64,000 nucleotides of DNA, from assembly GCF_002854065.1 (NCBI RefSeq), contig NZ_CP024154.1; one strand, given 5' to 3'. Shown here piece after piece: positions 1 through 16,555 of this stretch. This DNA is from Escherichia coli (lineage in GTDB: Bacteria; Pseudomonadota; Gammaproteobacteria; Enterobacterales; Enterobacteriaceae). The notes beneath the pieces are model-generated. The model saw only the letters and a list, made by a program, of their open reading frames with translations, was not told where the DNA came from and searched no databases. The translations under genes and the position numbers were made by a program. The number at the start of each line of letters is the position of its first letter. Position 1 is the stretch's first letter.

Positions 1-66
1 TATGCGGTCGCCCGGTAACAGGTGCGGCACGGCCTGATGGAGGCCGCATGTGAGAGGAGAATTCCC

Positions 67-993
67 ATGCCAAACTGGTGCTCGAATCGTATGTATTTTT
101 CTGGTGAACCGGCACAGATCGCTGAGATTAAACGACTGGCCAGCGGTGCAGTTACACCGCTTTATCGCCGCGCCACAAATGAAGGTATTCAGCTGTTTCT
201 GGCCGGAAGTGCCGGACTTCTGCAGACCACTGAAGATGTGTGGTTTGAACCGTGCCCCGGACTGACGGCTGCCGGACGTGGCGTTGTATCGCCGGAGAAT
301 ATCGCGTTCACCCGCTGGCTGACACACCTGCAGAACGGTGTACTGCTGGATGAGCAAAACTGCCTGATGCTGCATGAACTCTGGCTGCAGAGCGGTACTG
401 GCCAGCGTCGCTGGGAAGGATTACCGGACGATGTCAGGGATACCATCACCGCGCTTTTCACCGCAAAAAGAGGTGACTGGTGTGGCTTCTGGAGTAACGA
501 GGATGTATCGGTGTGGTGGAACCGTCTGTGTGACAACGTACTGCCGGAAAAAACCATGCCGTTTGACCTGCTGACGGTTCTGCCCACCCGCCTTGATGTT
601 GAAGTGAATGGCTTTAACGGTGGTGTTCTGAACGGTGTTCCTTCTGCATATCACTGGTATACCGAACAGTATGGCGTGAAGTGGCCTTGTGGGTATGACC
701 TGAATATCAGCAGTCAGGGAGACAACTTCATTCAGGTTGATTTCGACACGCCGTGGTGTCAGCCGGAAAGCGACGTTATTGCAGAATTAAGCCGCCGTTT
801 CAGCTGCACGCTGGAGCACTGGTATGCCGAACAGGGCTGTGATTTCTGTGGCTGGCAGTTGTATGAGCGCGGAGAGCTCGTTGATGTGCTGTGGGGGGAG
901 CTGGAATGGTCTTCCCCGACAGATGACGATGAGCTGCCGGAAGTCACCGGACCTGCGTGGATAGTCGACAATGTGGCGCATTATGGCGGATGA
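67..993 (+). CDS. conserved leading-region protein of unknown function (about 308 aa; ORF open from window start, preferred start ATG 67)
   Basis: Long ORF with SD-like GAGAGGAGAA about 8 nt upstream of ATG 67; Trp/Cys-rich acidic protein; no catalytic motif recognised. Confidence 0.5.
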   Translation: MPNWCSNRMYFSGEPAQIAEIKRLASGAVTPLYRRATNEGIQLFLAGSAGLLQTTEDVWFEPCPGLTAAGRGVVSPENIAFTRWLTHLQNGVLLDEQNCLMLHELWLQSGTGQRRWEGLPDDVRDTITALFTAKRGDWCGFWSNEDVSVWWNRLCDNVLPEKTMPFDLLTVLPTRLDVEVNGFNGGVLNGVPSAYHWYTEQYGVKWPCGYDLNISSQGDNFIQVDFDTPWCQPESDVIAELSRRFSCTLEHWYAEQGCDFCGWQLYERGELVDVLWGELEWSSPTDDDELPEVTGPAWIVDNVAHYGG

Positions 994-1378
994 AGTATGA
1001 CGGAGACGGGCGGGCAACCGCCCGTTTCTTTTCCGGTAAAGGATGTCGCCGTGCTCCTCTTTATTACTGCGCCGGCTGACGCGGCGCGGCATAAACGCTG
1101 CCTGTGGTCAGTGTCCCGCGTCCGGCCGGGCACGGGACGGGCGCTTTTACCGCTCCCGGCTGGCGTCGGTGACAGTGTACGCCAGCCTGTCGCCCTTTTC
1201 TGATGAACGCCCTTCAAGCCGCTTTCGCGGCATAACCTTGCCGTCAAACAGACGACGGCTGCGGTATTCCACGGTCGGCCTGACCCGTTACCGGACGCGG
1301 TGAACAGCCCACAGGCAGCGGGGAACGGGCACCACAGGGGTGCCCTCCCGGTGCCCTCTGTAAGAGAAGGAGTTTTGT

Positions 1379-2062
1379 ATGTCCCGTTTTGTCCTCGGTA
1401 ACTGCATCGATGTTATGGCCCGTATCCCTGATAACGCCATTGATTTCATCCTCACCGACCCGCCGTACCTCGTCGGTTTCCGTGACCGTTCCGGGCGCAC
1501 CATCGCTGGCGATAAAACCGATGAATGGCTGCAACCGGCCTGTAATGAAATGTACCGCGTACTCAAAAAAGATGCGCTGATGGTCAGCTTCTATGGCTGG
1601 AACCGCGTCGATCGCTTTGTGGCCGCCTGGAAAAATGCGGGATTCAGCGTGGTTGGTCACCTGGTCTTCACCAAAAACTACACATCGAAGGCCGCATATG
1701 TGGGCTATCGCCACGAATGCGCCTACATCCTGGCAAAAGGCCGTCCACGTCTGCCACAAAACCCGCTGCCGGACGTGCTGGGCTGGAAATATTCGGGCAA
1801 TCGCCATCACCCGACGGAAAAGCCCGTTACCAGCCTGCAACCGCTGATTGAGAGCTTCACACACCCGAACGCAATTGTGCTGGACCCGTTTGCAGGCAGC
1901 GGCTCAACCTGCGTCGCCGCCCTCCAGTCCGGACGCCGGTATATCGGTATCGAGCTGCTTGAGCAGTATCACCGTGCCGGGCAGCAACGCCTTGCCGCCG
2001 TGCAACGGGCCATGCAGCAGGGGGCCGCGAATGATGACTGGTTTATGCCGGAGGCTGCGTAA
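1379..2062 (+). CDS. orphan DNA methyltransferase (N6-adenine/N4-cytosine type)
   Basis: DPPY motif (ILTDPPYLVGF) followed by FAGSGST AdoMet-binding motif; SD AGAAGGAG upstream; no adjacent restriction endonuclease. Confidence 0.8.
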   Translation: MSRFVLGNCIDVMARIPDNAIDFILTDPPYLVGFRDRSGRTIAGDKTDEWLQPACNEMYRVLKKDALMVSFYGWNRVDRFVAAWKNAGFSVVGHLVFTKNYTSKAAYVGYRHECAYILAKGRPRLPQNPLPDVLGWKYSGNRHHPTEKPVTSLQPLIESFTHPNAIVLDPFAGSGSTCVAALQSGRRYIGIELLEQYHRAGQQRLAAVQRAMQQGAANDDWFMPEAA

Positions 2063-2284
2063 ATGAACTATGCCGGACACGAAAAACTGCGCGCCGAAGT
2101 GGCGGAGGTGGCCAATGCCATGTGCGACCTGCGTACAACCATGAATGAGATGGAGCAGCGGTACAGCTTTAATGCCGACACCCTGCCGGAACGTCTGGTG
2201 CGTCAGACGCTGTTTCGCGCAAACCGCCTCCTGATGGAGGCATATACCGAAATTCTGGAACTGGATGCGTGCTTTAAAGATTGA
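2063..2284 (+). CDS. hypothetical small protein (73 aa), start abuts the methyltransferase stop
   Basis: ATG immediately after the TAA of the upstream gene (TAAATG); ORF only. Confidence 0.4.
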   Translation: MNYAGHEKLRAEVAEVANAMCDLRTTMNEMEQRYSFNADTLPERLVRQTLFRANRLLMEAYTEILELDACFKD

Positions 2285-2297
2285 GAAGGAGACGAGA

Positions 2298-2732
2298 ATG
2301 TACGGAACATGCGAAACGCTATGCCGGGAGCTGGCAGCAAAGTATCCGGGAGACACGCCGCTGATGCTGGTTATCTGGTCCCCGGAAGAAATTCAGGCCC
2401 TCGCTGACGGAATGGATATTTCCCTGTCCGATCATGAAATCAGGACTGTCCTGGCGCGCCTGGAGGACATCCCGGAAGACCAGCGGACTGAATCCGGTAT
2501 TTCTTCCGGTGCGGCGATGGAGATTATCAAATACGTGAGCGAAAACCGCCAGGTGACCGTCCCTGCTGAACTGCTGGCGTCCCTGATTCAGACCGCTGAA
2601 CAGGCACTGTGGAAACGTGAGTGGGCCGCCCGTGATAACGGCCTCGCCGTTCCGGAATGCGTCACCCGCCGACAGGCGGTGGTTAATCAGGCCCGCGCCC
2701 TGCTGAAAAACAACACACGCGAAAACGACTGA
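2298..2732 (+). CDS. hypothetical leading-region protein (145 aa), paralog of ORF 4435-4857
   Basis: SD GAGAAGGAGA upstream of ATG 2298; shares MY.T..E and R.VTVPA motifs with the 4435 product. Confidence 0.55.
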   Translation: MYGTCETLCRELAAKYPGDTPLMLVIWSPEEIQALADGMDISLSDHEIRTVLARLEDIPEDQRTESGISSGAAMEIIKYVSENRQVTVPAELLASLIQTAEQALWKREWAARDNGLAVPECVTRRQAVVNQARALLKNNTREND

Positions 2733-2776
2733 TGTTATCGCCGCCTCCGGGCGGCGATACAGGGAGACCATGAATC

Positions 2777-3547
2777 ATGAACGAAACGCTGAATGCACTG
2801 ATTTGTCGCCACGCCCGTAACCTGCTGCTGGCGCAGGGCTGGCCGGAAGAGACGGATGTTGACCAGCGAAATCCGAACTATCCGGGCTGGATCAGCATTT
2901 ACGTGCAGCTGGATGCGCCCCGGCTGGCGACGTTACTCGTTAACCGCCACGATGGCGTGCTGCCGCCGCACCTGGCCTCCGCCATTCAGAAACTGACCGG
3001 AACCGTGGCGGAACTTGTACTGTCCGGCAGCCAGTGGCAGGCGCTGCCGGTACTTCCGGCAGACGGAACGCAGGTGTCTTTCCCGTATGCCGGTGAATGG
3101 CTGACGGAGGAAGAAATCAGGGCCGTTCTTGATGCGGTGCACGATGCGGTACGCAGTGTCAGTTGCCGGGTGGCAGAAGATGCGCGGCGTATCAGGGCGG
3201 CGCTGACCACAACCGGTCAGACGTTGCTGACCCGCCAGACGCGCCGCTTTCGCCTGGTTGTGAAGGAAAGCGATTACCCCTGCTGGCTCGATGAAGACGA
3301 CGAAAACCTGCCCGTGGTGCTCGATGCCATCCTGAACCGGGGCGCTCGTTTTTCGTCGGTGGAAATGTATCTGGTCAGTGAGTGTGTGGAGCATATCCTG
3401 TCCAGTGGGCTGGCCTGCGATGTGCTGCGTATACCTGATGAACCGTCCCGTCGCTGGTTTGACCGGGATATTCTGCGGGAGGTGGTCCTGGAAGCCCGGA
3501 CTGAAATCCGCAGCATGGCGGATGCACTGGCGAAAATCCGGAAATGA
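2777..3547 (+). CDS. hypothetical leading-region protein (256 aa)
   Basis: Long ORF with SD AGGGAGA upstream; no recognised motif. Confidence 0.5.
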
Positions 3548-3619
3548 TGACGCTGGCGGGGAAAAATCTCCGCCTTTTCCAGCCGGTCCCCGGAAAGAGC
3601 AAAAGGATGTCGCCGCAGG

Positions 3620-3945
3620 CTCCGCTTTACCCGGCCATGCGGGGCATGGCCTTGTGGGTTTTCAGTTATGTGGCCTCAGCGCCGTGTGCGGGCTGTGCCG
3701 TGCCTCCATCGTAGCCGGGCTTCTGCGGGCGGGTTGCAAGGTAAGGTGAACCGCTGCGGTCACCCGGTCCCTCCTTCCCGTCTGCCGTGATTTTCCGGTC
3801 GTTCACCCGCTCAGATTTCGCGGTCTCACCCTTCAACTCCCGTCAGCCGTGCGCGTCAGGCTGCGGCTTCCCTTGCGCCCTTGCAACCCTGCAGGCCCGG
3901 CAAAGATGGAGGCACGGCACCGCCCGGTGTCGCGGAATATGTGAA
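3620..3945 (+). repeat. repeat family A copy 1: about 330-bp hairpin-rich element, putative single-strand promoter (Frpo/ssi-like)
   Basis: About 95 percent identical to 10567-10892; contains perfect hairpin GGCCATGC-GGG-GCATGGCC; ends about 20 nt before the klcA start. Confidence 0.6.
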
Positions 3946-3962
3946 CAACGGAGGAAAACATC

Positions 3963-4388
3963 ATGCAATATGCGAAACCTGTCACTCTGAACGTTGAAGA
4001 GTGCGACCGTCTGTCTTTTCTGCCTTACCTGTTTGGCCTGGATTTTCTGTATGCCGAAGCGTCTGTATACGCGCTGGCGAAAAAAATGATGCCGGAATAT
4101 GAAGGCGGATTCTGGCACTTCATCCGCCTGCCGGACGGTGGCGGTTACATGATGCCGGATGGCGACCGTTTCCACATGGTGAACGGTGCAAACTGGTTTG
4201 ACCGTACCGTGAGTGCTGATGCCGCAGGCATCATCCTTACCTCCCTTGTGATTAACCGCCAGTTGTGGCTGTACCACGACAGCGGGGATGCAGGGTTGAC
4301 ACACCTGTACAGGATGCGTGATGCGCAGTTGTGGAGCCACATCGAATTTCACCCCGAATGCAACGCGATTTACGCGGCACTTGACTGA
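3963..4388 (+). CDS. klcA: anti-restriction protein, KlcA/ArdB family
   Basis: 141-aa protein with KlcA/ArdB-like sequence and size; SD GGAGGA upstream; leading-region context. Confidence 0.75.
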
Positions 4389-4434
4389 TTAACGGACGGG
4401 GCGGCAATGCCGCCCCTGTAAAGGAGACGAGAAC

Positions 4435-4857
4435 ATGTACTGTACTGTTAAAGAAATCATCCGCGATGTACTGGATACAGACGTGCCGGACAGTGAATGC
4501 GTTTTTGCCGTGGTGCTGACCCGTGGGGATGTGCGTCACATAGCCCGGGACTGGAACCTGTCAGACGATGAGCTGGAAACCGTCATGCAGCGGCTGGACG
4601 ATGCTTTTGTATATGGCGCATGTGACAGAGTTGTTTCCGATATTGTCAATGAACTGATGGAAGAAAAGCGCGCCAGCCGTCATGTGACAGTCCCGGCGGT
4701 GATGCTGGAAAAAGTGATGGCGCTGGCAGGTAGTGAAATGAAGCGCCTGTATGCCGTCGGGAGTGAGAACGGGGGCGACGGTGACGCATTCGTCAGGGAG
4801 GAACTCGAAGCAATGGACGTTGTGTTGCAGGCGCTGGACGGGGAGACGATGTCATGA
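4435..4857 (+). CDS. hypothetical leading-region protein (140 aa), paralog of ORF 2298-2732
   Basis: SD AAAGGAGA upstream; shared MY.T..E, LSD.E..TV..RL.D and R.VTVPA motifs with the 2298 product. Confidence 0.5.
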   Translation: MYCTVKEIIRDVLDTDVPDSECVFAVVLTRGDVRHIARDWNLSDDELETVMQRLDDAFVYGACDRVVSDIVNELMEEKRASRHVTVPAVMLEKVMALAGSEMKRLYAVGSENGGDGDAFVREELEAMDVVLQALDGETMS

Positions 4858-5045
4858 ATATCAGCACAGAAACCCGCGAAATTCTGCGTAATTACAGGGC
4901 CGTGATTAATGCGCGGCGTCGTGAAATGGGGCAGAAACCGCTCACCACCGCGCAGATTGTTGATGAAATCTGCGATTTTGTGGCGAATCAGCAGGCGGTT
5001 TTCCTGGGCGGTCACTACATCCTTCAGGGCAGCAGAAACAGGTGA
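4854..5045 (+). CDS. hypothetical small protein (63 aa), start overlaps upstream stop (ATGA)
   Basis: ORF with translational coupling only. Confidence 0.35.
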   Translation: MNISTETREILRNYRAVINARRREMGQKPLTTAQIVDEICDFVANQQAVFLGGHYILQGSRNR

Positions 5046-5248
5046 TACAGGGGCAGGCGGTGGAGGCCGCCTGTCAGCCCGCGCGAAAACCCCTGGCAGG
5101 CTGACGCCTGCCGGAAACGAGGGGGGCAGCGCCTGCGGCGCTGCCGGCCCGGCTTTCCGGTCAGAAGGTAGTGTATGGCTGTATGCAGGGAACAGGAGTG
5201 ATATTCCGTGACACTGTCACCGTTTCTGGCTGTCTTTTATTGCGCCCA

Positions 5249-5745
5249 CTTCGGCTCCCGGCTGCCTGGCGGCATCCGGTCGTCAGGCCCGACTCCGACG
5301 GGCAGCTGCTGGCGCACCCGCCAGTCTCCGCCGAACCCGCTGGCGCGGTTTCGGGCTGCCGCTACGGTCCGATGCGTGAAAACCCGGCTTGCAGCGACCG
5401 TTCCGGTCGCGCCGCCCCTGTCGCGCCGTGACCTGCGCTCCCTGCACACCTGACGGTGTGTGAGGAAACTGCGCCTGATGGCGCAGCAGTCCTCCCTCCT
5501 GCCGCCACTCCTGCGGCCTGTTTCCCGCTGTGGACTTTCCGGGGGGCAGACGTAACCCCCTCCCGTTCCATCTGTCCAGGGTGAGATGCACCGGCCACAA
5601 AATTTTTAGCCATGAACCCGGCAAAAAATTTTGCGTCCGCCCCCGGACAGCTGCCCCGTGAGGCGGTAAACGGGCCCCCATCGGAAAGGTCCACTGCGGG
5701 GAGAAACCCCTGTGAAGTGGACGGCAGGAGGAGCTTTCGCTCCTC
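5249..5745 (+). repeat. repeat family B copy 1: about 500-bp hairpin-rich element, putative single-strand promoter/ssi
   Basis: Near-identical to 11592-12090 and partially to 14681-15010; multiple perfect hairpins (GCGACCG-TTC-CGGTCGC, ACACC-TGAC-GGTGT); ends about 70 nt before ssb. Confidence 0.6.
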
Positions 5746-5814
5746 TGAAGGGGCACATGAACGTCCCGTCGCCGGTATCCGGTTTATCTCACATCTTTCA
5801 GTCAGGAGGTTCTT

Positions 5815-6342
5815 ATGAGTGCACGTGGTATCAACAAGGTCATCCTCGTCGGGCGTCTGGGCAATGATCCGGAAGTCCGTTACATCCCCAACGGGGGCGC
5901 AGTGGCAAACCTGCAGGTGGCTACGTCAGAAAGCTGGCGCGACAAACAGACGGGGGAAATGAAGGAACAGACGGAATGGCACCGCGTGGTGCTGTTCGGC
6001 AAGCTCGCGGAAGTGGCTGGCGAATATCTGCGCAAGGGCGCGCAGGTCTACATCGAGGGGCAACTCCGTACCCGTAGCTGGGAAGATAACGGTATCACCC
6101 GTTACGTCACTGAAATTCTTGTTAAGACCACGGGCACCATGCAGATGCTGGGGAGTGCACCACAGCAGAACGCTCAGGCGCAACCGAAGCCTCAGCAGAA
6201 TGGGCAGCCACAGAGTGCTGACGCGACGAAAAAAGGTGGCGCGAAAACGAAAGGCCGTGGACGTAAGGCCGCGCAGCCCGAGCCTCAGCCGCAAACGCCG
6301 GAGGGGGAGGATTACGGGTTTTCAGACGACATCCCGTTCTGA
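5815..6342 (+). CDS. ssb: plasmid single-stranded DNA-binding protein
   Basis: OB-fold SSB N-terminus ([18 protein letters not shown]), Gly/Gln/Pro-rich linker and acidic C-terminal DDIPF tail; SD AGGAGG. Confidence 0.92.
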
Positions 6343-6393
6343 TCGGGCTGACTGTGACAACCGCCCCGCCCTGTGCGGGGCATCACCGGAGAT

Positions 6394-6633
6394 ATGAGGA
6401 TGAGCGAATATTTCAGAATACTTCAGGGACTGCCGGACGGCTCCTTTACCCGCGAACAGGCGGAAGCCGTTGCCGCACAGTACCGGAACGTCTTTATCGA
6501 GGATGATCAGGGAACGCATTTTCGCCTGGTTGTCCGCAATAACAGTGGTCTGGTCTGGCGTACCTGGAATTTTGAGGACGGTGCCGGGTACTGGATGAAC
6601 CATGCCATCCGTGATTTCGGGATTCTTAAGTAA
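6394..6633 (+). CDS. hypothetical small leading-region protein (about 79 aa)
   Basis: ORF with ATG at 6394/6400 and purine-rich upstream sequence. Confidence 0.45.
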
Positions 6634-6691
6634 GAGAGGTGCCGGACGCGCGAACGTCCGGCAGGACATAAGCAATTATAAGGGGATGATT

Positions 6692-8650
6692 ATGCCTGTA
6701 ACGAAGTGTGAACCAGAAACCACCCGCAAAGCAAGCCGTAAATCTGCAAAAACGCAGGAAACTGTCCTGTCTGCCCTGCTGGCGCAGACGGAGGAAGTGA
6801 GCGTGCCGCTGGCCTCGCTGATTAAATCACCGCTGAATGTGCGCACGGTGCCGTATTCTGCGGAGTCCGTCAGCGAACTGGCTGAGTCCATTAAGGGCGT
6901 TGGCCTGTTGCAGAATCTGGTCGTGCATACTCTGCCTGGTGACCGTTACGGTGTCGCCGCAGGTGGTCGCCGACTGGCTGCACTCAACATGCTGGCAGAG
7001 CGTGGCATCATTCCGGCTGACTGGCCTGTCCGTGTGAAGGTCATTCCGCAGGAGCTGGCGACGGCGGCATCAATGACTGAAAACGGTCATCGTCGGGATA
7101 TGCACCCTGCTGAACAGATTGCCGGATTCCGCGCAATGGCGCAGGAAGGCAAAACACCTGCACAAATCGGTGATTTGCTGGGCTATTCACCCCGCCACGT
7201 TCAGCGAATGCTGAAACTGGCTGACCTTGCGCCTGTCATCCTCGATGCGCTGGCAGAAGACCGCATCACCACCGAACACTGTCAGGCGCTGGCGCTGGAG
7301 AACGACACCGCGCGTCAGGTGCAGGTGTTTGAAGCTGCCTGTCAGTCGGGATGGGGCGGAAAACCGGATGTGCGGGTTATCCGCAATCTGATTACGGAAA
7401 GTGAAGTGGCGGTGGCGGGGAACAGTAAATTCCGCTTCGTGGGGGCTGATGCCTTCTCGCCAGACGAACTGCGCACCGATTTGTTCAGCGACGACGAGGG
7501 TGGCTATGTGGACTGCGTGGCGCTCGATGCCGCCCTGCTGGAAAAACTCCAGGCTGTCGCAGAGTTCCTTCGGGAAGCCGAAGGCTGGGGATGGTGCGCC
7601 GGACGCATGGAGCCTGTCGGTGAGTGCCGTGAGGATGCCGGAACATACCGCAACCTGCCGGAGCCGGAAGCGGTGCTGACCGAGGCGGAAGAAGAACGTC
7701 TGAACGAACTGATGACGCGTTACGACGCGCTGGAAAACCAGTGTGAGGAATCTGACCTGCTGGAAGCAGAAATGAAGCTGATGCGCTGCATGGCGAAGGT
7801 CAGAGCGTGGACGCCGGAGATGCGTGCCGGAGGTGGCGTGGTGGTGTCCTGGCGTTATGGCAATGTGTGTGTCCAGCGTGGTGTGCAGTTGCGCAGTGAG
7901 GATGATGCGGCTGACGACGCTGACCGCACGGAACAGGTGCAGGAAAAAGCATCAGTGGAGGAAATCAGTCTGCCACTGCTGACGAAAATGTCTTCCGAAC
8001 GCACGCTGGCAGTCCAGGCAGCACTGATGCAGCAACCGGACAAATCCCTGACACTGCTGGCATGGACGCTCTGCCTGAATGTGTTTGGCAGCGGAGCGTA
8101 CAGTAAACCAGCACAAATCAGCCTGGAATGTAAACATTATTCGCTGACCAGCGATGCGCCATCGGGGAAGGAAGGTACCGCATTCATGGCGCTGATGGCA
8201 GAAAAAGCCCGTCTTGCTGCCCTGTTACCGGAGGGATGGTCACGGGACATGACGACATTCCTGTCACTCAGTCAGGAGGTGCTGTTATCCCTGCTGAGTT
8301 TCTGCACCGCATGCAGCCTTAACGGTGTCCAGACCCGTGAGTGTGGTCACACGTCACGCAGTCCGCTTGACACGCTGGAAACCGCTATCGGATTCCACAT
8401 GCGCGACTGGTGGCAGCCGACAAAAGCAAACTTCTTCGGACACCTGAAAAAGCCGCAGATTATCGCAGCTCTGAATGAGGCAGGACTGTCCGGTGCCGCA
8501 CGGGATGCGGAGAAGATGAAGAAAGGCGATGCGGCTGAACATGCAGAGTTCCACATGAAAGACAACTGCTGGGTGCCTGGCTGGATGTGTGCACCACGTC
8601 CACAGACGGATACCACTGAACGCACCGATAACCTGGCTGATGCCGCCTGA
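6692..8650 (+). CDS. ParB-like nuclease-domain protein (about 653 aa)
   Basis: N-terminal ParB/Srx-like region (LIKSPLNVR, GLLQNLVV, AGGRRLAAL, HRRDMHPAEQ); long acidic C-terminal extension; between ssb and psiB. Confidence 0.7.
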   Translation: MPVTKCEPETTRKASRKSAKTQETVLSALLAQTEEVSVPLASLIKSPLNVRTVPYSAESVSELAESIKGVGLLQNLVVHTLPGDRYGVAAGGRRLAALNMLAERGIIPADWPVRVKVIPQELATAASMTENGHRRDMHPAEQIAGFRAMAQEGKTPAQIGDLLGYSPRHVQRMLKLADLAPVILDALAEDRITTEHCQALALENDTARQVQVFEAACQSGWGGKPDVRVIRNLITESEVAVAGNSKFRFVGADAFSPDELRTDLFSDDEGGYVDCVALDAALLEKLQAVAEFLREAEGWGWCAGRMEPVGECREDAGTYRNLPEPEAVLTEAEEERLNELMTRYDALENQCEESDLLEAEMKLMRCMAKVRAWTPEMRAGGGVVVSWRYGNVCVQRGVQLRSEDDAADDADRTEQVQEKASVEEISLPLLTKMSSERTLAVQAALMQQPDKSLTLLAWTLCLNVFGSGAYSKPAQISLECKHYSLTSDAPSGKEGTAFMALMAEKARLAALLPEGWSRDMTTFLSLSQEVLLSLLSFCTACSLNGVQTRECGHTSRSPLDTLETAIGFHMRDWWQPTKANFFGHLKKPQIIAALNEAGLSGAARDAEKMKKGDAAEHAEFHMKDNCWVPGWMCAPRPQTDTTERTDNLADAA

Positions 8651-8704
8651 TGAACAACCACACCGCCCCGCCGGAGACGGGGCGGCAGCAAGGGAGATAC
8701 CGTG

Positions 8705-9139
8705 ATGAAAACTGAACTGACCCTGAATGTATTACAGACCATGAGTGCACAGGAATATGAAGATATCCGGGCTGCCGGAAGTGATGAACGCCGTGAGCTG
8801 ACACACGCCGTGATGCGGGAACTGGATGCGCCGGACAACTGGACGATGAATGGCGAGTACGGCAGCGAGTTCGGCGGCTTTTTCCCCGTCCAGGTCCGTT
8901 TCACGCCTGCCCACGAACGTTTTCACCTGGCGTTATGTTCACCGGGCGATGTCTCTCAGGTCTGGGTGCTGGTTCTGGTGAATGCCGGTGGTGAGCCGTT
9001 TGCGGTGGTTCAGGTGCAGCGGCGGTTTGCACCGGAAGCTGTCAGCCATTCACTGGCACTGGCGGCGTCACTGGATGCGCAGGGGTACAGCGTTAACGAC
9101 ATCATTCATATCCTGATGGCGGAAGGAGGTCAGGCATGA
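8705..9139 (+). CDS. psiB: plasmid SOS inhibition protein B
   Basis: 144-aa product; position immediately upstream of and overlapping psiA; SD AGGGAGA. Confidence 0.85.
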
Positions 9140-9855
9140 GCGCACGTTCACGGGCACTGATCCCCCTCAGCGCAGAACAACAGGCCGCCATGCAGGCGGT
9201 GGCTGTCACAGAACAACGTCGTCGTCAGGGACGCACACTTTCAGCATGGCCTTATGCCACCGCTTTCTTTCGCTGCCTGAATGGCAGTCGCCGGATTTCG
9301 CTGACCGATCTCCGCTTTTTTGCCCCTGCGCTGACGAAGGAGGAATTTCATGGCAACCGTCTCCTGTGGCTGGCTGCCGTGGATAAACTGATTGAAAGTT
9401 TTGGGGAAGTCTGTGTTCTTCCCCTGCCATCCGATGCGGGGCACCGTCTGTTCCCGTCCCTGCCTTTTCGTGAAGGTGAGCGTCGTCGTCAGAAAACCAC
9501 GCTGACAGAGCAGAAATACAGCCGCCAGCGGGAACGTGAGGCAGAACGACGGGAACTGGAATACCAGACATGTTTTGCTCAGGCGCAGATTGACCTTGCG
9601 TTTCATACTCCCGCCACGGTCGGAAGCTGGTTGTCCCGCTGGTCTGGTGTTGTTGAGGAGCATGATCTGGAAACGATTTTCTGGGGGTGGTGCGGGCGTT
9701 TTCCATCACTGTCATCATTTGACCGGTTTTTCTGGCAGGAGGAACCACTCTGGCGGCTGATTTTTGAAGCCGGTGAGGCCGGTCGTGGTGCACCGGTACA
9801 GGTACGTGCACTTGAGCAGTGGATGATCCCGAACAAGCTGGAGAACGTAATATGA
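9136..9855 (+). CDS. psiA: plasmid SOS inhibition protein A
   Basis: 239-aa product, start overlaps psiB stop (ATGA); typical psiB-psiA pair. Confidence 0.85.
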
Positions 9856-10448
9856 TGAAATCAGACGAAAAATACCAGGTTCCCGCGTGGATGCGACCTC
9901 TGTTGCCGTTGCTCTGCAACACCGGGGGGAACGATCCGGAAGAACTGCTGAATGATACAGAAACCACTGCCAGTGCGAATGTTGTCCGTTATGTACTGAT
10001 AGTTGCTGTGCGGTCGCAGGTTGATCTGCTGCAGCTTCTGTACAGGAAAGGGCTGTTGCGCACAGAGATACCAGGTGGCTTTTCACCGGAAGAAGCGCAG
10101 GCACTCCTGGATAATCTGGTGCGCAGCCATATCAGCAGGGCGCTGTCGGGCGAGCGAATGGCAGCCCGTGACAGAAATGCCGATCTGGCCTGGATTGGAC
10201 AGCAACTGGTCGATGCCGCCTGGTTTGTCCGTGCCACACTGGAAGCGCATGGGATGAGCGTCGGAAATGAGAGCCCCCCTGCTCCGCCGGAGACAATGCC
10301 GGACATACAGACACGGGAACTGGTTATGTTGATCAAGCGACTGGCATCATCGCTGAAAGCGGTGAAACCCGACAGTAGCGTGGTGCGTGAAGCGCAGGAC
10401 TGGCTGTGCGACAGAAAACTTGTGGATATCACAGATATTCTCCGGTGA
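9852..10448 (+). CDS. hypothetical leading-region protein (198 aa)
   Basis: ATG 9852 overlaps psiA stop; SD GGAGAA upstream; no recognised motif. Confidence 0.5.
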   Translation: MMKSDEKYQVPAWMRPLLPLLCNTGGNDPEELLNDTETTASANVVRYVLIVAVRSQVDLLQLLYRKGLLRTEIPGGFSPEEAQALLDNLVRSHISRALSGERMAARDRNADLAWIGQQLVDAAWFVRATLEAHGMSVGNESPPAPPETMPDIQTRELVMLIKRLASSLKAVKPDSSVVREAQDWLCDRKLVDITDILR

Positions 10449-10566
10449 ACCAGACATGTATATTTTACGCAGGGACACGCCGATCATGATCGTTTCATAT
10501 CAGGGGTGGTCTGGAGGTCATGCGGCGTGTCCTCTGCACTCGCCGGAATAAGGAAGTCGCCGGCGG

Positions 10567-10892
10567 CTCCGCTTTTACCCGGCCATGCGGGGCATGGCCT
10601 TGTGGGTTTTCAGTTATGTGGCCGCCGTGTCGTGTGCGGGCTGTGCCGTGCCTCCATCGTAGCCGGGCTTCTGCGGGCGGGATGCAAGGTAAGATGAACC
10701 GCTGCGGTCACCCGGTCCCTCCTTCCCGTCTGCCGTGATTTTCCGGTCGTTCACCCGCTCAGATTTCGCGGTCTCACCCTCCAACTCCCGTCAGCCGTGC
10801 GCGTCGGGCTGCGGCTTTCCTTGCGCCCTTGCATCCCTGCAGGCCCGGCAAAGATGGAGGCACGGCACCGCCCGGTGTCGCAGAACATGTGA
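10567..10892 (+). repeat. repeat family A copy 2, putative single-strand promoter
   Basis: About 95 percent identical to 3620-3945; ends immediately upstream of the ardA SD. Confidence 0.6.
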
Positions 10893-10909
10893 CTATGGAG
10901 GATTCGGGA

Positions 10910-11410
10910 ATGTCTGTTGTTGCACCTGCTGTATACGTTGGAACCTGGCACAAATACAACTGTGGAAGCATCGCCGGACGCTGGTTTGACCTGACCACGT
11001 TTGATGATGAGCGCGACTTTTTCGCCGCCTGCCGTGCTCTTCACCAGGATGAAGCCGATCCTGAACTGATGTTTCAGGATTATGAGGGATTCCCGGGGAA
11101 TATGGCCTCTGAATGTCATATCAACTGGGCCTGGGTTGAAGGCTTCCGCCGGGCACGGGATGAAGGCTGCGAAGAGGCTTATCGTCTCTGGGTGGATGAT
11201 ACCGGTGAGACGGATTTTGACAGCTTCCGCGATGCCTGGTGGGGCGAGGCTGACAGTGAGGAGGCTTTTGCGGTTGAGTTCGCCAGTGATACCGGCCTGC
11301 TGGCTGACGTGCCGGAGACGGTGGCGCTCTATTTTGACTATGAGGCGTATGCGCGGGATTTATTCCTGGACTCCTTCACCTTTATTGACGGTCATGTGTT
11401 CCGTCGGTGA
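10910..11410 (+). CDS. ardA: anti-restriction protein ArdA (DNA mimic)
   Basis: 166-aa highly acidic protein (MSVVAPAVYVGTWHKYNCGSIAGRWFDL...); SD GGAGGA; leading-region position. Confidence 0.88.
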   Translation: MSVVAPAVYVGTWHKYNCGSIAGRWFDLTTFDDERDFFAACRALHQDEADPELMFQDYEGFPGNMASECHINWAWVEGFRRARDEGCEEAYRLWVDDTGETDFDSFRDAWWGEADSEEAFAVEFASDTGLLADVPETVALYFDYEAYARDLFLDSFTFIDGHVFRR

Positions 11411-11591
11411 TTTACTCCCCCGCTCCGGCGGGGGTATGGCCTGCCAGGCCGCCGGAAAACCCTGGCAGGCTTACGCCTGCCTGAAATGCAGGAGGGCCGC
11501 GCCTGCGGCGCTGCCCTTCCTGCCCGTCATGGTGTGAGGCATTTTTCTGTTATGTCGTTTCTGTTGTTCTGATTTCCGGAGGCGGGGACAC

Positions 11592-12090
11592 CTTCGGCTC
11601 CCGGCTGCCTGGCGGCATCCGGTCGTCAGGCCCGACTCCGACAGGCAGCTGCTGGCGCACCCGCCAGTCTCCGCCGAACCCGCTGGCGCGGTTTCGGGCT
11701 GCCGCTACGGTCCGATGTCTGAAAAACCAGGCTTGCAGCGACCGTTCCGGTCGCGCCGCCCCTGTCGCGCCGGAAACGGCGCTCCCTGCACACCTGACGG
11801 TGTGTAAGGCCACTGCGCCTGATGGCGCAGTTGTCTGCCCTTCCGCCGCCCCCCCTGCGGCCTGTTTCCCCGCTGTGGACTTTCCGGGGGCTGAAGCGGC
11901 CACAACACGTTTCAGCCGTCCAGGGGAGAGATGTACCAGCCACAAAACTTTTTGCCGCAGGCGTCAAAAACTTTTGCGTCTGCCCCCGGACAACTGCCCC
12001 GTGCCGTGGCAGTCGCTGCCCTATCGGAAAGGTCCACTGCGGGGAGAAACCCCGAAGAAGTGGACGGCAGAAGGGGCTTTCGCCCCTCCG
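11592..12090 (+). repeat. repeat family B copy 2, putative single-strand promoter
   Basis: Near-identical to 5249-5745; ends about 50 nt before ORF 12143. Confidence 0.6.
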
Positions 12091-12142
12091 GGGGAGCAAC
12101 CGGTCGGCCCGGCGACCTGATTCAGCAGAAGGAGACGTTTTC

Positions 12143-12577
12143 ATGACAGTCAGCAGCACGATTTCCGTTTTTTGCCGCGACGGGGTGTTCCGTACCGTTT
12201 ACTGCCACCTGCACGGTGAGCCGACCTGGAACGGTCGCATCCTGCATACCCACTATGCCACTGGTCAGCAGGCCGAAGCCCTGGTTGAACACGGTGATAT
12301 CCGTTGCCTCGGTCCCCGTTGCGACAAACCCGCCGGGCATACGCTTCAGAACCCGGTGGACGGTGTGACGGCTTATTACGGACGTGACAGTGGTTTCCGG
12401 ATGGACAGTGAGGCGCGTGAGTACCGTTCTTTCAGGGAGGCCATCGCCACGGAAAGCACTGAAGAGGTGCGCTTCCATTATGTGTTCATCGACGGCTACT
12501 GGAAGGTGATGTACCGCACGCCGGAAGGCTGGAAGATGAAGTCGCTTGCGCTGGCACTGCGCCGCTGTCCGAAATGA
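12143..12577 (+). CDS. hypothetical protein (144 aa) directly downstream of repeat B2
   Basis: SD AAGGAG 7 nt upstream of ATG; Cys/His-containing; rho-independent terminator hairpin downstream (about 12579-12606). Confidence 0.55.
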   Translation: MTVSSTISVFCRDGVFRTVYCHLHGEPTWNGRILHTHYATGQQAEALVEHGDIRCLGPRCDKPAGHTLQNPVDGVTAYYGRDSGFRMDSEAREYRSFREAIATESTEEVRFHYVFIDGYWKVMYRTPEGWKMKSLALALRRCPK

Positions 12578-12669
12578 AAAAAAGGCAGGGCGATAAACCC
12601 TGCCTCTCTCCGCCGCTGCTTCCCGGCCAGGAAGAGCGGCAGTCATCAACAACATAAGGAGAAATATTT

Positions 12670-12936
12670 GTGAGACCATCAATTATCTTTGCAACGGCTG
12701 AATATGTAAAGCGTCTGCGTGAAGAGTGCCTGCGGGAGAATAAACCCCTGCACCGCCATACCCGCTTCAGACGTCAGGAGCTGGCACAGGATGAGATTAA
12801 CCCGGACGTCCTGGCGATGAGCAGTCATATCGCCAGACGCTGCAGTAAGCAGAAGCGGGTGCGTATCCCCGCGATGAAAGCCAGCGAATGGGGCCACCTG
12901 CTCCGCGCGCTTGAAATTGAGCGGGTCTGCCACTGA
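12670..12936 (+). CDS. hypothetical small basic protein (88 aa, GTG start)
   Basis: ORF only; Arg/Lys-rich. Confidence 0.3.
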   Translation: MRPSIIFATAEYVKRLREECLRENKPLHRHTRFRRQELAQDEINPDVLAMSSHIARRCSKQKRVRIPAMKASEWGHLLRALEIERVCH

Positions 12937-13000
12937 TTAACCCTTGCCGTCTGCCTGTGCAGGCGGCAGGATACGTTCAGACATCTCACCAGGAGGAACC

Positions 13001-13951
13001 GTGAGTAAGAAGAAAAACACCACAACGCCCACGCCGCATGATGCCGCGTTCCGGTCGTTCCTGGCGAATCCCGACGTTGCCAGGGATTTTCTGGAACTGC
13101 ATCTTCCTGCGGAGCACCGGCAGTTGTGCGACCTGTCCACGCTGAAGCTGGAACCCGCCACCTTTGTTGAGCCGGACCTGCATCAGTACGCCAGCGATAT
13201 CCTCTGGAGCGTGAAAACCACCGGGGGTGAAGATGGTTATGTTTATACGCTCATCGAGCACCAGAGCACAGAAAATCTGTACATGCCTTTTCGCATGTTA
13301 CGCTACAGTGTGGCGGCGATGCAGAGACATCTGGAGCAGCACAAAACGTTGCCACTGGTGATTCCGGTGCTGTTCTATCACGGTGAGCGCAGCCCGTACC
13401 CGTACAGCATGAACTGGCTGGACTGTTTTGAGAATCCGGCACTTGCGGCTAAAATATACACAAAGCCGTTTCCGCTGGTTGATATCACTGTCGTTGATGA
13501 CAATGAAATCATGAACCATCGCCGGATGGCCGCACTGACGCTGCTGATGAAGCATATCCGCCATCGTGACATGATGGAGCTGCTGGACAAACTCCCGCAG
13601 GTCATGGTGGAAATTTCAGATGAACAGGTGCGTGTTCTGATTCATTACATCGTTAACGCAGGGGACTCTGTATCACCGGAATTTATGCGGGCGCTGGCTG
13701 AGCGTCTGCCGCAGCATGAGGATAAACTGATGACTATCGCAGAACGTCTTGAGCAAAAAGGTCGCCAGGAAGGCAGGATGGAAGGACGCATGGAAGGACG
13801 CATGGAAGGACGCATGGAAGGACGCATGGAAGGAGCGCTTGAAAAAGCCCTGGCTATTGCGTGCCAGCTTCAGAAAATGGGGATGACGCCGGAGCAGATT
13901 AAGCAGGCTACCGGACTTTCCGATGACGAACTGAAGAACATCACTCACTGA
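13001..13951 (+). CDS. Rpn-family (YhgA-like, transposase_31) PD-(D/E)XK recombination-promoting nuclease
   Basis: N-terminal YhgA-like motifs (HDAAFRSF, ASDILW, YTLIEHQS); SD CAGGAGGA before GTG 13001; C-terminal tail carries (EGRM)n repeat; terminator hairpin at about 13963-13990. Confidence 0.75.
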   Translation: MSKKKNTTTPTPHDAAFRSFLANPDVARDFLELHLPAEHRQLCDLSTLKLEPATFVEPDLHQYASDILWSVKTTGGEDGYVYTLIEHQSTENLYMPFRMLRYSVAAMQRHLEQHKTLPLVIPVLFYHGERSPYPYSMNWLDCFENPALAAKIYTKPFPLVDITVVDDNEIMNHRRMAALTLLMKHIRHRDMMELLDKLPQVMVEISDEQVRVLIHYIVNAGDSVSPEFMRALAERLPQHEDKLMTIAERLEQKGRQEGRMEGRMEGRMEGRMEGRMEGALEKALAIACQLQKMGMTPEQIKQATGLSDDELKNITH

Positions 13952-14013
13952 TGAGAACCACAAAGCCCGGCAAAATGCCGGGTTTTTTTGTCAGCAGGAG
14001 CAGAGCAAACAGC

Positions 14014-14196
14014 ATGACGATTGCAGAACGTCTTATACAGAAAGGTTTCGACGAAGGTTTTAAGAAAGGTGCGCTTGAAGTGGCGCGGGAAGCAGCCTGC
14101 CGGCTGCGGGATATGGGCTGGACGCCGGAACGGATTCAGGAGGCAACCGGACTTTCCGGTGAAGAACTGAAAAAGCTGTTTCCTGATGAGCAGTAG
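14014..14196 (+). CDS. free-standing paralog of the Rpn C-terminal tail domain (60 aa)
   Basis: MTIAERLIQKG...TPERIQEATGLSGEELKKLF aligns with the Rpn tail MTIAERLEQKG...TPEQIKQATGLSDDELKNI; weak SD; hairpin terminator downstream. Confidence 0.45.
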   Translation: MTIAERLIQKGFDEGFKKGALEVAREAACRLRDMGWTPERIQEATGLSGEELKKLFPDEQ

Positions 14197-14226
14197 CCTG
14201 GCATTCTGCCAGGCTGTGAATCACGC

Positions 14227-14478
14227 TCACACATTCCCTGCCGTTTCCCCCAGTTCATTTTCCAGTCGCCTGATGATATCTGCCTTACGCATCCCCTGCA
14301 TGTGAGGCAGCAGGTCACGGACTGAAAGTGCCTGGGTGGTCCTCCAGACGGTGACATCCACCTGTTCCGCATTTTCCCAGGCGTGCCATGTTCTCTGTGT
14401 CACGCCAAATTCTCTGGCCGCTTTTTCGCGTGACCAGAGCATGCTTTTTCGCCAGATTCGCAGTTCCCAGCCGGTCAT
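14227..14478 (-). CDS. helix-turn-helix (XRE/Cro-like) transcriptional regulator (83 aa)
   Basis: HTH signature SREKAAREFGVTQRTWHAWE; AT-rich upstream region with GTGAA-N5-TTCAC inverted repeat. Confidence 0.55.
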   Translation of the reverse strand: MTGWELRIWRKSMLWSREKAAREFGVTQRTWHAWENAEQVDVTVWRTTQALSVRDLLPHMQGMRKADIIRRLENELGETAGNV

Positions 14479-14680
14479 AAAACACCTTTGAAAAAGTGAA
14501 AAAACTTCACTTTATTTTATCATCATAGTCACCAAGTCAGCGCGATAAATAAGAGTGAAAAAGTAAAGAAATTTCATTTTTTTTAGTTGTAGGTGTCGTG
14601 CTGTTTTCTCTGTTTTCACCTGTGCGGGAGTGGGCGTCAGTGACCACCACATGCCATTGTTGTGCCGTCGTTTTTCTTCA

Positions 14681-15010
14681 GTCGCGCCGGATGCGGCGCT
14701 CCCTGCACACCTGACGGTGTGTAAGGCCACTGCGCCTGATGGCGCAGCTGTCTCTGCCTGTCTGCCGCCGCACTGCGGCCTGTTCTCCGCAGACGGACTT
14801 TCCGGGGGTGCATACACGACCACATCCCGTTTCAGTCGTCCAGGGGAGAGATGTACCAGCCACAAAACTTTTTACCGCAGGCGTCAAAAACTTTTGCGTC
14901 TGCCCCCGGACAACTGCCCCGTGACGTGGTGAGCGTCCCCCGTCGGAAAGGTCCACTGCGGGGAAATCCCCGAAGACCCGGACGGCAGAAGGAGCTTCGC
15001 TCCTCCGGGA
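14681..15010 (+). repeat. repeat family B copy 3 (5'-truncated), putative single-strand promoter
   Basis: Matches the 3' two-thirds of copies B1/B2; ends about 45 nt before ORF 15057. Confidence 0.55.
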
Positions 15011-15056
15011 AATGACCTGGCTGACCCGGCAGTCGTGACGATGAGGAGACAATGTG

Positions 15057-15905
15057 ATGAATCAGACTTTACCCACTGCTGACCTGAATACTGCCGGCAC
15101 GACAGATGTTATTCTGTCTGTGGCTATCGACCGCATCATAGCGCAGCGTAACGAAGGTATTGCACTGTTCATGCAGGCGATGGAATGCCTGGCGACAGCG
15201 CGCAGGATTCTGCTCGATGCTTCCGGTGACATTTTTCTCTACGGGTTTGAAGACTGCGTGACTGACTCCGTTCGGTGCATGGATAAACCGGAAGAAGCAA
15301 AAAAGAATATCACCCGTCTTGCCGACCGGAAAATCTGGGATCGCCTGATGACGGATACTGGCATGTACACCTTCATGAGTTCATGCCAGCGTGATGAGTG
15401 GAACAGCCAGCTGATGAGCGACACCTGTCCTGAAATCACCCTGGACAATGTACTGGCAACTTTTCGCTATCTGAATGCCAGCAAGATGCGGACGTTTGAA
15501 CAGGGACTGATTGATGTCTGGCGGAAATTGTCATGGGATTACAGAACCAATAATCCCTGCCGTCTGGGCAAGAAAATCATTATTGAAAACCTGCTGTACC
15601 GCTGGAGTAACGGGCGTGTGACGCTGGACTGCAGCGGACGGGAGGCACTGGATGACCTGGTATGTCCGTTTTATCTACTGGAGGGACGCAACGTTCCTGA
15701 CTTCAGGAACAGCATCGGGGCGCAGTATGGTGAATATCTCGGGAACGGCGATAATGTCGGTAAGCTGTTAGAAGGGGAATATTTTACGGTGCGTGGCTAC
15801 CAGAAAGGGACCGTACACATTGTCTTTAAGCGTCCTGACCTTGTTGAAAAACTGAATGATATTATTGCACGGCATTATCCTGGTGCATTGCCGCCACGAG
15901 TCTGA
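15057..15905 (+). CDS. hypothetical protein (283 aa); oriT-proximal plus-strand gene of the leading region
   Basis: SD GAGGAG 7 nt upstream of ATG 15057; directly behind repeat B3; terminator hairpin at about 15911-15945. Confidence 0.55.
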   Translation: MNQTLPTADLNTAGTTDVILSVAIDRIIAQRNEGIALFMQAMECLATARRILLDASGDIFLYGFEDCVTDSVRCMDKPEEAKKNITRLADRKIWDRLMTDTGMYTFMSSCQRDEWNSQLMSDTCPEITLDNVLATFRYLNASKMRTFEQGLIDVWRKLSWDYRTNNPCRLGKKIIIENLLYRWSNGRVTLDCSGREALDDLVCPFYLLEGRNVPDFRNSIGAQYGEYLGNGDNVGKLLEGEYFTVRGYQKGTVHIVFKRPDLVEKLNDIIARHYPGALPPRV

Positions 15906-15989
15906 TTAAACAGAAAAGCCCTGGTATTTATGCCGGGGCTTTTTTTCTGTAATCATCATAATCTCAGAACACGATGTGACATTGTCACA

Positions 15990-16331
15990 TCAATTGTTGT
16001 TCATATCGATGCCATCTTTCCTGCCTGAATCTGTCTTTTTAGGTGCTGTTTTAGAGGAAGAACGGCGGGATGGTTTTTTCGATTCTGCTTCCCGAATAAT
16101 GTCACGAAGTGCTTTCTCTCCTACTTCATACCCTGCATTTTTGAGCGTGTCACGAACATCTGCCAGTGTATAACCCTTTGTCCTTACCAGGACAATGATG
16201 TCATCACGAATGGCATCAAGAAAATCACGCAATGTTTTCCGTTGAGCGGTGAGGTCCGGCAATTCCGATAAGGCAGCTTTTGCCAGCTGGATGTCATCAT
16301 CTGAGTAAAATTTTTTAGAAGCCATTGGCAC
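15990..16331 (-). CDS. hypothetical small basic protein next to oriT (possible DNA-binding protein)
   Basis: ORF of 113 aa with Lys/Arg/Ser-rich C-terminus; stop codon lies within a perfect 20-bp palindrome. Confidence 0.4.
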   Translation of the reverse strand: MPMASKKFYSDDDIQLAKAALSELPDLTAQRKTLRDFLDAIRDDIIVLVRTKGYTLADVRDTLKNAGYEVGEKALRDIIREAESKKPSRRSSSKTAPKKTDSGRKDGIDMNNN

Positions 16332-16439
16332 TTTCTCTCTGTTTTATGTTGAAGCCTGATTTTATCACCAAAACTGCCCCTGGCAGGGCTGCGCCCTGCC
16401 TCTGCCGTCTGCATAAGACTATGATGCACAAAAATAACA

Positions 16440-16545: not shown

Positions 16546-16555
16546 GGAGCAGACC

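Follow-up and report, generated by a model that had tools for sequence, protein, structure and literature searches.

Each of the two copies of repeat family A in this Escherichia coli sequence is, we are confident, a class 2 single-stranded DNA (ssDNA) promoter module of an I-complex conjugative plasmid, one placed before a klcA/ardB-type and the other before an ardA anti-restriction gene. The family belongs to the class 2 promoters already published, and the finding is therefore already known: Wen et al. 2025 (NAR, PMC12672017) reported that six operons of pESBL are induced within 15 min of plasmid entry, each of them preceded by a large hairpin of the transferred strand. Three of these hairpins, homologues of ssi1-3/Frpo, constitute class 1, the mutually similar hairpins 5' of klcA and ardA were termed "class 2 ssDNA promoters", and the hairpin 5' of M.EcoGIX is class 3. 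In the same study the starts of all six operons were mapped by 5' RACE in transconjugants, and the leading-region genes showed up to ~500-fold induction 15 min after mating, an induction that falls as pESBL turns double-stranded and lasts longer in uvrD-deleted recipients (PMC12672017). Our own evidence comprises homology, fold, covariation, promoter geometry and gene context; what is said about mapped starts, about induction that is early and transient, and about a roadblock to replication comes from the literature on orthologues. For the plasmid analysed here we infer both the start site and the silence of the duplex. The window, i.e. the whole stretch of 64,000 nucleotides of contig NZ_CP024154.1 that was analysed, holds the following repeats, genes and further elements:

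3603..3955, plus strand: family A copy 1 (blastn, 94.6% over 354 nt against copy 2; MAFFT alignment)
10550..10902, plus strand: family A copy 2 (blastn, MAFFT, repeat search)
3963..4388, plus strand: klcA/ardB-type anti-restriction gene after copy 1 (Pfam Antirestrict PF03230, 3e-26)
10910..11410, plus strand: ardA anti-restriction gene after copy 2 (Pfam ArdA PF07275, 2e-29)
5249-5745, 11592-12088 and 14681-15009: family B, class 1 elements before ssb and two further operons
~1095-1330: class 3 hairpin, followed by the methylase gene at 1379 (folding at -82.9 kcal/mol, z -6.25)

The initial annotation had described two copies of about 95% identity at 3620-3945 and 10567-10892. Both are real and lie inside a wider homology, 3603-3955 and 10550-10902, which blastn recovers as direct repeats with 94.6% identity over 354 nt. 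In the MAFFT alignment of 3520-4000 with 10467-10947 the copies are near-identical from ~3603 to 3955, and a repeat search of the window matched 3626-3925 with 10574-10873 over 300 nt at 97%, ungapped. The copies point in the same direction at a spacing of 6948 bp. The initial annotation had let each copy end within about 20 nt of the Shine-Dalgarno sequence of an anti-restriction gene (ATG at 3963 and 10910); the homology, ~353 nt long, reaches through the Shine-Dalgarno GGAGG itself. The names klcA and ardA, given to these genes at the outset, agree with the Pfam matches listed above; a search of NCBIfam assigned neither KlcA nor ArdA nor the two upstream ORFs to a family. The klcA-type protein of the window shares 93.6% amino acid identity with the product of the F gene 3' of ssp2 (yfgB by position), and its ArdA shares 98% with ArdA of pESBL.

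The family A element matches that of the E. coli plasmid p86 (IncK2/Z, MOBP, MPF_I) at 100%, and at least 5000 PLSDB plasmids contain it; one of two class 2 cores is found in at least 5,900 of 72,556. Within one plasmid, the two copies have hairpin cores that are 97.5% identical in the window and 99.2% in pESBL; between the two plasmids the cores are only ~84% identical, and the left flanks track orthology instead. Such concerted evolution of the copies is the pattern that would be expected of gene conversion between them.

Positions 1-16550 of the window are collinear at ~95% with positions 53405-70445 of pESBL-EA11, and the two share a gene order of orphan methylase, klcA-type gene, ssb, parB-like gene, psiB, psiA, ardA, mobC and nikA, the collinearity extending to mobC and the start of nikA. 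The window is the leading region of an IncK2/Z (I-complex) conjugative plasmid. Given the same gene order as in pESBL-EA11, oriT lies near 16.4 kb, with the leading region toward low coordinates; since all genes are on the plus strand and oriT is at the high-coordinate end, the minus strand is the one transferred, and it is also the template for the plus-strand genes of the leading region. The polarity used here is the established one of IncI1 transfer. It is also that of the pESBL map in Wen et al. 2025 (PMC12672017).

Within this frame the window holds the same six elements as pESBL: one of class 3, two of class 2 and three of class 1. The proposal in the initial annotation that two distinct classes of structured element precede different leading genes thus coincides with the published scheme of class 1 and class 2, family A aligning with class 2 and family B with Frpo1 and Frpo2. 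In blastn, family B matches two F regions, 5' of ssb and of ygeA, which are Frpo2 and Frpo1, respectively. Family A was described as unrelated to family B, and indeed blastn finds no similarity between it and 5249-5745, 11592-12088 or 14681-15009, nor any match to the Frpo1 and Frpo2 regions of F; homology to class 1 was therefore not found. Aligned end to end with whole intergenic regions, in contrast, family A is 89.3% identical to that of pESBL klcA, 91.7% to that of pESBL ardA and 88.3% to that of F (89.1% to F in blastn), and so is homologous to described class 2 elements. It also shares their location: a leading-region site directly 5' of klcA/ardB and of ardA, with the transferred strand as template. 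A search of Rfam gave no match at the gathering score and none at E <= 1 for positions 3540-3990.

The class 2 elements of pESBL (IncI1) occupy the same two positions in a collinear leading region, their intergenic regions being 89-92% identical to those of the window, and they likewise possess a long minus-strand hairpin with a basal stem, an apical loop and a small upstream hairpin. Class 1 elements (Frpo1/Frpo2 [ssiD] of F; ssi1-3 of ColIb-P9; Masai & Arai 1997; Bates et al. 1999) follow the same principle as family A: a hairpin of the transferred strand rebuilds the -35 and -10, is active as ssDNA only, and serves early genes of the leading region. Transcripts from class 1 have been reported to prime complementary-strand synthesis, whereas ssp2, the class 2 element of F, blocks it (bioRxiv 10.64898/2026.01.09.698686). 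The class 3 element of pESBL is also present in the window; it has a boundary motif in common with class 2, but a different hairpin sequence, and class 3 was reported to be without roadblock activity (bioRxiv 10.64898/2026.01.09.698686).

The structural elements of the proposed promoters are as follows:

3689..3926, minus strand: class 2 ssDNA-promoter hairpin, copy 1 (fold, pseudo-duplex drawing, covariation)
10637..10874, minus strand: class 2 ssDNA-promoter hairpin, copy 2 (fold, pseudo-duplex drawing)
3734..3739, minus strand: -35-like hexamer TTGCAA, copy 1, on the non-template arm, fully paired
3708..3713, minus strand: -10-like hexamer TACGAT, copy 1, on the non-template arm, with T.T and C.T mismatches opposite
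10682..10687, minus strand: -35-like hexamer TTGCAT, copy 2
10656..10661, minus strand: -10-like hexamer TACGAT, copy 2
3913..3915, plus strand: predicted klcA transcription start (A3914, 7 nt past the -10, from the pseudo-duplex geometry)
10861..10863 (10862), plus strand: predicted ardA transcription start, in the same register as in copy 1

Folded as minus-strand DNA, the 363-nt repeats reach -92.9 (copy 1) and -92.6 kcal/mol (copy 2); shuffled sequences fold at about -72 kcal/mol (z -5.2 and -4.5), and none of 100 shuffles was as stable. The 238-nt hairpin alone accounts for -74.1 and -72.1 kcal/mol, respectively. In both copies the transferred strand folds into the large stable stem-loop characteristic of class 2. 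In copy 1 the template arm spans ~3880-3926 and the non-template arm ~3689-3750. When the basal stem is drawn as a pseudo-duplex, its non-template arm reads 5'-CC TTGCAA CCCGCCCGCAGAAGCCCGGC TACGAT GGAGGCACGGCAC-3'; at the -35 position of copy 1, pESBL, F and other relatives have TTGCAT. In the window copies 20 nt separate the -35 from the -10 along the non-template arm, compared with 15 nt along the template arm. A perfect 16-bp stem follows downstream of the -10, and the basal stem consists of 16 + 5 bp with one mismatch. As in class 2, then, a -35 and a -10 are rebuilt in the stem and point at the gene, but with the spacing arranged differently. The seventh base past the -10 is paired with position 3914 of the template arm, which makes A3914 the predicted start; the predicted starts lie ~49 nt before each ATG, and this is the length of the leader. 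On the plus strand of the linear duplex one finds only TTGCAA-15 nt-AAAGAT, and a scan for the linear sigma-70 consensus on both strands at both copies returned no site.

A comparison with relatives provides further evidence on the hairpin. A scan of a species-dereplicated genome collection with a core pattern yielded 91 loci. About two thirds of the matches proved to be genuine relatives, every one of them situated on a contig whose context is that of an enterobacterial leading region; their sources include Pantoea, Erwinia, Yersinia pestis, Klebsiella, Buttiauxella, Cedecea, Salmonella arizonae, Lelliottia and Mixta. The remaining third (e.g. Streptomyces sp., Verrucomicrobiota, Bacteroidetes) were chance matches with neither a -35 nor a complementary arm and were dropped. 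It should be kept in mind that the search pattern itself imposed GCCCGGCTA...T...G.CACGGC, hence the invariance of this string among relatives, and that relatives were additionally filtered for a -35-like motif. When 29 long-type members are aligned, the consensus hairpin has 50 pairs, and compensatory changes are seen at 18 of them. In these relatives 96.7% of the alignment cells are paired, compared with only 32-45% for slid partners, and the covariation score of 0.283 stands against 0.144 +/- 0.006 in shuffles (0 of 500). Blocks in the apical loop, GACCGGGTGA and AAGCCGCAGC, are conserved in 29 of 29. The candidate 'Frpo' 4', predicted computationally from an insect metagenome (Samuel et al. 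2024, Nature, PMC11541004, Suppl. Table 2), has the same sequence as an Erwinia dacicola contig and aligns over the whole of family A, loop blocks and small hairpin included. The gene downstream of it is of the KlcA type, and the candidate differs from the window in spacer and stem, with compensatory changes.

Among 55 relatives with a recognisable downstream ORF, the arm bearing TAnnnT faces a gene for ArdA (17), KlcA (16) or an M.EcoGIX-like orphan methylase (20) in 53, and the start codon is found 39-54 nt beyond the hairpin-base reference point. TAnnnT is present on one arm only, the other arm having AAAGAT or TTTTAT. These regularities bear on the idea that family A is an inert dispersed repeat, whether a palindromic mobile element of the MITE type or the scar of a recombination event. 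A long imperfect palindrome in several copies per plasmid, homogenised within plasmids, is what such a repeat might look like; yet the orientation is constant, the start codon always keeps to the distance just given, and the downstream genes fall into three anti-restriction families across many genera. The compensatory changes, moreover, keep the stem, and neither a terminal duplication nor a transposase context was seen. We regard an inert repeat as extremely improbable.

Even less can be said for a protein-coding repeat, i.e. a duplicated small gene for a 'DUF1472 domain-containing protein', the probability of which we take to be practically negligible. A 190-aa ORF annotated as DUF1472 does run across the element in the Salmonella Infantis plasmid CP052799, and in record LC521841 the matching stretch is annotated with a hypothetical protein and 'ycfA'. 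However, an ORF of the CP052799 type overlaps the end of the upstream gene and the start of klcA, most of the records listed annotate nothing at the element, and base pairing accounts for the substitutions. Nor does the annotated 190-aa ORF match anything in the current Pfam-A. In both window copies, pESBL and F, the frame is broken by stops and 4-5-nt indels. The initial annotation had named simple duplication including coding sequence as an outcome that would speak against its reading; DUF1472 is the only ORF annotated across the element, and it is broken here.

The hairpins of relatives in other genera touch on a further point. Class 2-like hairpins precede the methylase gene there, whereas the window, pESBL and F use class 3 at that place, and the methylases associated with class 3 are up to 90% identical to those behind class 2-like hairpins. 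The promoter class can be exchanged.

Covariation proves the hairpin, but not which of the two strands folds. An asymmetry of G.T over A.C pairs, 107 to 13, was considered as a strand test and rejected as an artefact of using the structure derived from the minus strand: on the pairs common to both strand-derived structures the count is 7 to 7, and on their union 110 to 110. This leaves room for the view that the hairpin acts in the sense RNA, as a structured leader, a processing or stabilising element, or a terminator/attenuator of klcA and ardA reached by read-through. The palindrome folds on both strands (-70.2 and -65.9 kcal/mol on the plus strand versus -74.1 and -72.1 on the minus strand), covariation and wobble counts do not separate them, and the small hairpin further upstream, followed by a T run, resembles a terminator on the plus strand. 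Nevertheless, only the last ~40 nt of the repeat are downstream of the predicted start, a -10-like TAnnnT is kept only on the non-template arm of the minus-strand hairpin, and Rfam has no match even at E = 1. In pESBL, the starts were mapped inside the stem and induction follows the ssDNA state (PMC12672017). A role in the sense RNA is thus very unlikely, and we assign the fold to the transferred strand because of the orientation, with the one-armed TAnnnT facing the gene, and because of the published experiments.

Both window copies differ from pESBL and F in the promoter core. Their non-template arm carries TTGCAA/T-20 nt-TACGAT together with the bulge, the spacer of the template arm being 15 nt, whereas pESBL, F and every other relative have a non-template spacer of 15 nt and ~4 extra bases (19 nt) on the template arm. 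In pESBL the core is TTGCAT-15 nt-TAAGAT with three mismatches at the -10 and a template bulge; the window has two mismatches and a non-template bulge. The window-type core is not rare: it occurs in 1,393 PLSDB plasmids, compared with 4,512 that have the pESBL/F core. Because of this frequency we infer that the variant core is active and works like that of pESBL and F. With it the window contributes a class 2 core variant that is both natural and frequent.

The element of F deserves separate consideration. F ssp2, independently found as 'Frpo3' (bioRxiv 10.64898/2026.01.09.698686; bioRxiv 10.1101/2025.04.03.647016), occupies the orthologous position directly 5' of a klcA/ardB-type gene, with 88-89% nucleotide identity to the window; F has a single class 2 copy because it is without ardA. 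Its core is of the pESBL type, and its basal stem is an uninterrupted, perfect 21-bp helix, compared with 16 + 5 bp and one mismatch in the window. It drives yfgB, an ArdB homologue, and is needed for its expression; in addition it stalls complementary-strand synthesis at the end of the stem until UvrD resolves it (bioRxiv 10.64898/2026.01.09.698686). This roadblock is a measured feature of F ssp2 only. By analogy, complementary-strand synthesis probably halts at the window hairpin as well, for as long as UvrD has not opened it, and expression from ssDNA would be prolonged.

One may ask, then, whether the main selected role of family A is in replication, as a programmed roadblock or a priming site (ssi), with the promoter secondary. 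Besides the stalling at the stem end of ssp2, a swap with ssp3, which has equal promoter strength and no roadblock, restores F transfer incompletely in some hosts or against EcoKI (bioRxiv 10.64898/2026.01.09.698686), and the conserved apical-loop blocks play no part in the promoter. On the other hand, the roadblock is an added rather than an exclusive function, ssp2 being needed for the expression of yfgB, and the strict association with anti-restriction genes, with a leader of fixed length, argues for selected transcription. The window, furthermore, has two copies, and the roadblock data concern F ssp2, which precedes a klcA/ardB-type gene. Replication as the main role is highly improbable in our judgement, and we retain the promoter as the primary function.

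Upstream of the promoter hairpin, the repeats carry two smaller features:

3633..3651, plus strand: small perfect hairpin GGCCATGC-GGG-GCATGGCC, then TTGTGGGTTTTC, copy 1
10581..10599, plus strand: small perfect hairpin, copy 2
3609..3628, plus strand: boundary motif GTCGCC..GGCTCCGCTTT with AGGA before it, copy 1, at the upstream edge of the repeat
10556..10575, plus strand: boundary motif, copy 2

The small hairpin was the perfect hairpin to which the initial annotation had drawn attention. It is present in both copies as stated, but as a promoter structure it does not hold, being separate from and outside the 238-nt hairpin. Its shape is kept, with a differing stem sequence, in the copies of Entomohabitans, K. 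grimontii and Erwinia dacicola. The simplest reading of the small hairpin and its T run is a possible intrinsic terminator that ends the preceding operon. This stays a suggestion because neither test rose above background: a terminator scan at the small hairpin found 1 where 1.2 and 0.6 were expected from shuffles, and the left domain folded as RNA is not unusually stable (z -0.79). The boundary motif, AGGAnGTCGCC...GCTCCnCTTT, borders both class 2 copies and the class 3 element on their upstream side; searched as a variable-gap pattern, it has 3 matches in the window, compared with 0.03 expected. In class 2, the small hairpin and the T run come next after it.

We propose the following course of events. 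During conjugation the minus strand of the window would enter the recipient first, as ssDNA, and its positions 3689-3926 (and 10637-10874) would snap back into the 238-nt hairpin. The basal stem would then serve as a pseudo-duplex sigma-70 promoter, with a fully paired -35 (TTGCAA or TTGCAT), a partly unpaired -10 (TACGAT) and a spacer of 15 rungs from which 5 extra bases are bulged out. Host RNA polymerase would start at ~3914 or 10862 and transcribe klcA or ardA before a complementary strand exists, so that the anti-restriction proteins would be ready in time against type I restriction. Synthesis of the complementary strand would finally melt the hairpin and leave the linear duplex with TTGCAA-15 nt-AAAGAT, a poor promoter, and expression would therefore shut off.

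A more far-reaching interpretation, which we put forward tentatively and consider rather doubtful as a whole, is that the boundary motif, the terminator-like hairpin and the promoter-roadblock hairpin make up a portable cassette dedicated across Enterobacterales to ArdA, KlcA and the orphan methylase. Helical geometry rather than linear spacing might set its activity (~15 rungs and a 4-5-nt bulge on either arm), and the apical GACCGGGTGA and AAGCCGCAGC might be a host-factor site for the roadblock. Were this true, the non-template bulge of the window would be a natural experiment on the spacing rule.

The window holds no new principle; its value is in a confirmed annotation and in side observations that can be tested. 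The distinction between class 1 and class 2 proved recoverable from a reading of the sequence alone, and the class 2 family, being tied almost exclusively to three families of anti-restriction genes, could aid the annotation of leading regions and of anti-defence genes. Promoters of this kind let conjugative plasmids express anti-restriction functions before the defences of the host cut the incoming DNA. Their carriers include IncI, IncK and IncF resistance plasmids, and ssDNA promoters thereby help to set the host range of plasmids.

In both class 2 hairpins of the window, those in front of klcA and ardA, the promoter core is a variant: its spacer bulge lies on the non-template arm (20/15 nt), whereas pESBL, F and every other relative have the bulge on the template arm (15/19 nt). 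Among PLSDB plasmids the variant core was found in 1,393, compared to 4,512 with the pESBL/F core.

Positions of the variant promoter core
3700-3745 and 3880-3910: copy 1
10648-10693 and 10828-10858: copy 2

Outside the promoter stem, three apical-loop blocks, AAGCCGCAGC, AACGAC-GGAA and GACCGGGTGA, are invariant or nearly so in 29 of 29 long-type relatives (columns about 96-105, 160-170 and 204-213 of alignment A2; about 3760-3870 in the window). These blocks may have a structural role as a junction, or may bind a factor connected with the roadblock to complementary-strand synthesis.

The paired hairpin cores inside one plasmid are 97.5-99.2% identical (3689-3926 and 10637-10874 in the window; 7091-7364 and 14038-14311 in L004, the pESBL locus), but between the two plasmids the cores share only about 84% identity. 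Unlike the cores, the flanks of the copies track orthology, and this distribution of identity is the pattern expected of gene conversion between copies.

In some GenBank records a 190-aa "DUF1472 domain-containing protein" is annotated across the class 2 hairpin (L096, one such record's locus, 418-990, CP052799.1), overlapping the klcA start and the end of the upstream gene. In the window (3378-3990) that frame is interrupted, and the annotated ORF matches nothing in the current Pfam-A; a spurious gene call is therefore probable.

The class 1 (Frpo/ssi) ssDNA promoter of the window is family B, whose sequence matches the Frpo1/Frpo2 regions of F. Its three copies stand in front of ssb, of the operon that follows ardA and of the DUF4942 gene at 15054. 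Two stretches matched Rfam families, the second just above the gathering score, and a repeat search yielded further direct repeats at 49802-50574 and 13817-14174, with three 164-nt copies (62-73% identical) in one set and two 122-nt copies (72%) in the other.

Class 1 elements and Rfam matches of the window
5249-5745, 11592-12088 and 14681-15009: family B
29659-29815, plus: sok antitoxin RNA, 124.7 bits
26083-26170, minus: AgrB-like antisense RNA, 47.7 bits

Besides families A and B there is a third type of large hairpin in the transferred strand, with a sequence related to neither; it folds at -82.9 kcal/mol (z -6.25) and, judged by position, is the counterpart of the class 3 ssDNA promoter in front of M.EcoGIX in pESBL. 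GTCGC-N4-9-CTCCNCTTT, a motif with AGGA before it, was found at three places in the window versus 0.03 expected, in each case at the upstream boundary of a class 2 or class 3 element and never at a class 1 element. Distant relatives retain it as well, and it may act as a weak bulged terminator hairpin.

Class 3 hairpin and boundary motifs
1095-1330, minus: hairpin preceding the methylase ORF 1379-2062
1045-1062, 3609-3628 and 10556-10575, plus: boundary motif

Enterobacterial plasmid leading-region DNA is also contained in two loci of Streptomyces morookaense DSM 40503 (L008, L009) and in MAG records labelled Oscillibacter, Oscillospiraceae, Collinsella and Lachnospiraceae (L011, L013, L026, L054, L058), with klcA, ardA or methylase genes downstream of class 2 hairpins. 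Contamination or mis-binning is the most likely explanation.

M.EcoGIX-like methylase genes lie directly 3' of class 2-like hairpins in many Pantoea loci and in three others.

Class 2-like hairpins before a methylase gene
L033, 7177-7450: Yersinia pestis
L017, 55-328: Cedecea
L007, 7342-7615: Enterobacter

These methylases share up to 90% identity with that of the window, which is itself preceded by the class 3 hairpin, unrelated to class 2. Thus one promoter class has replaced another in front of orthologous methylase genes.
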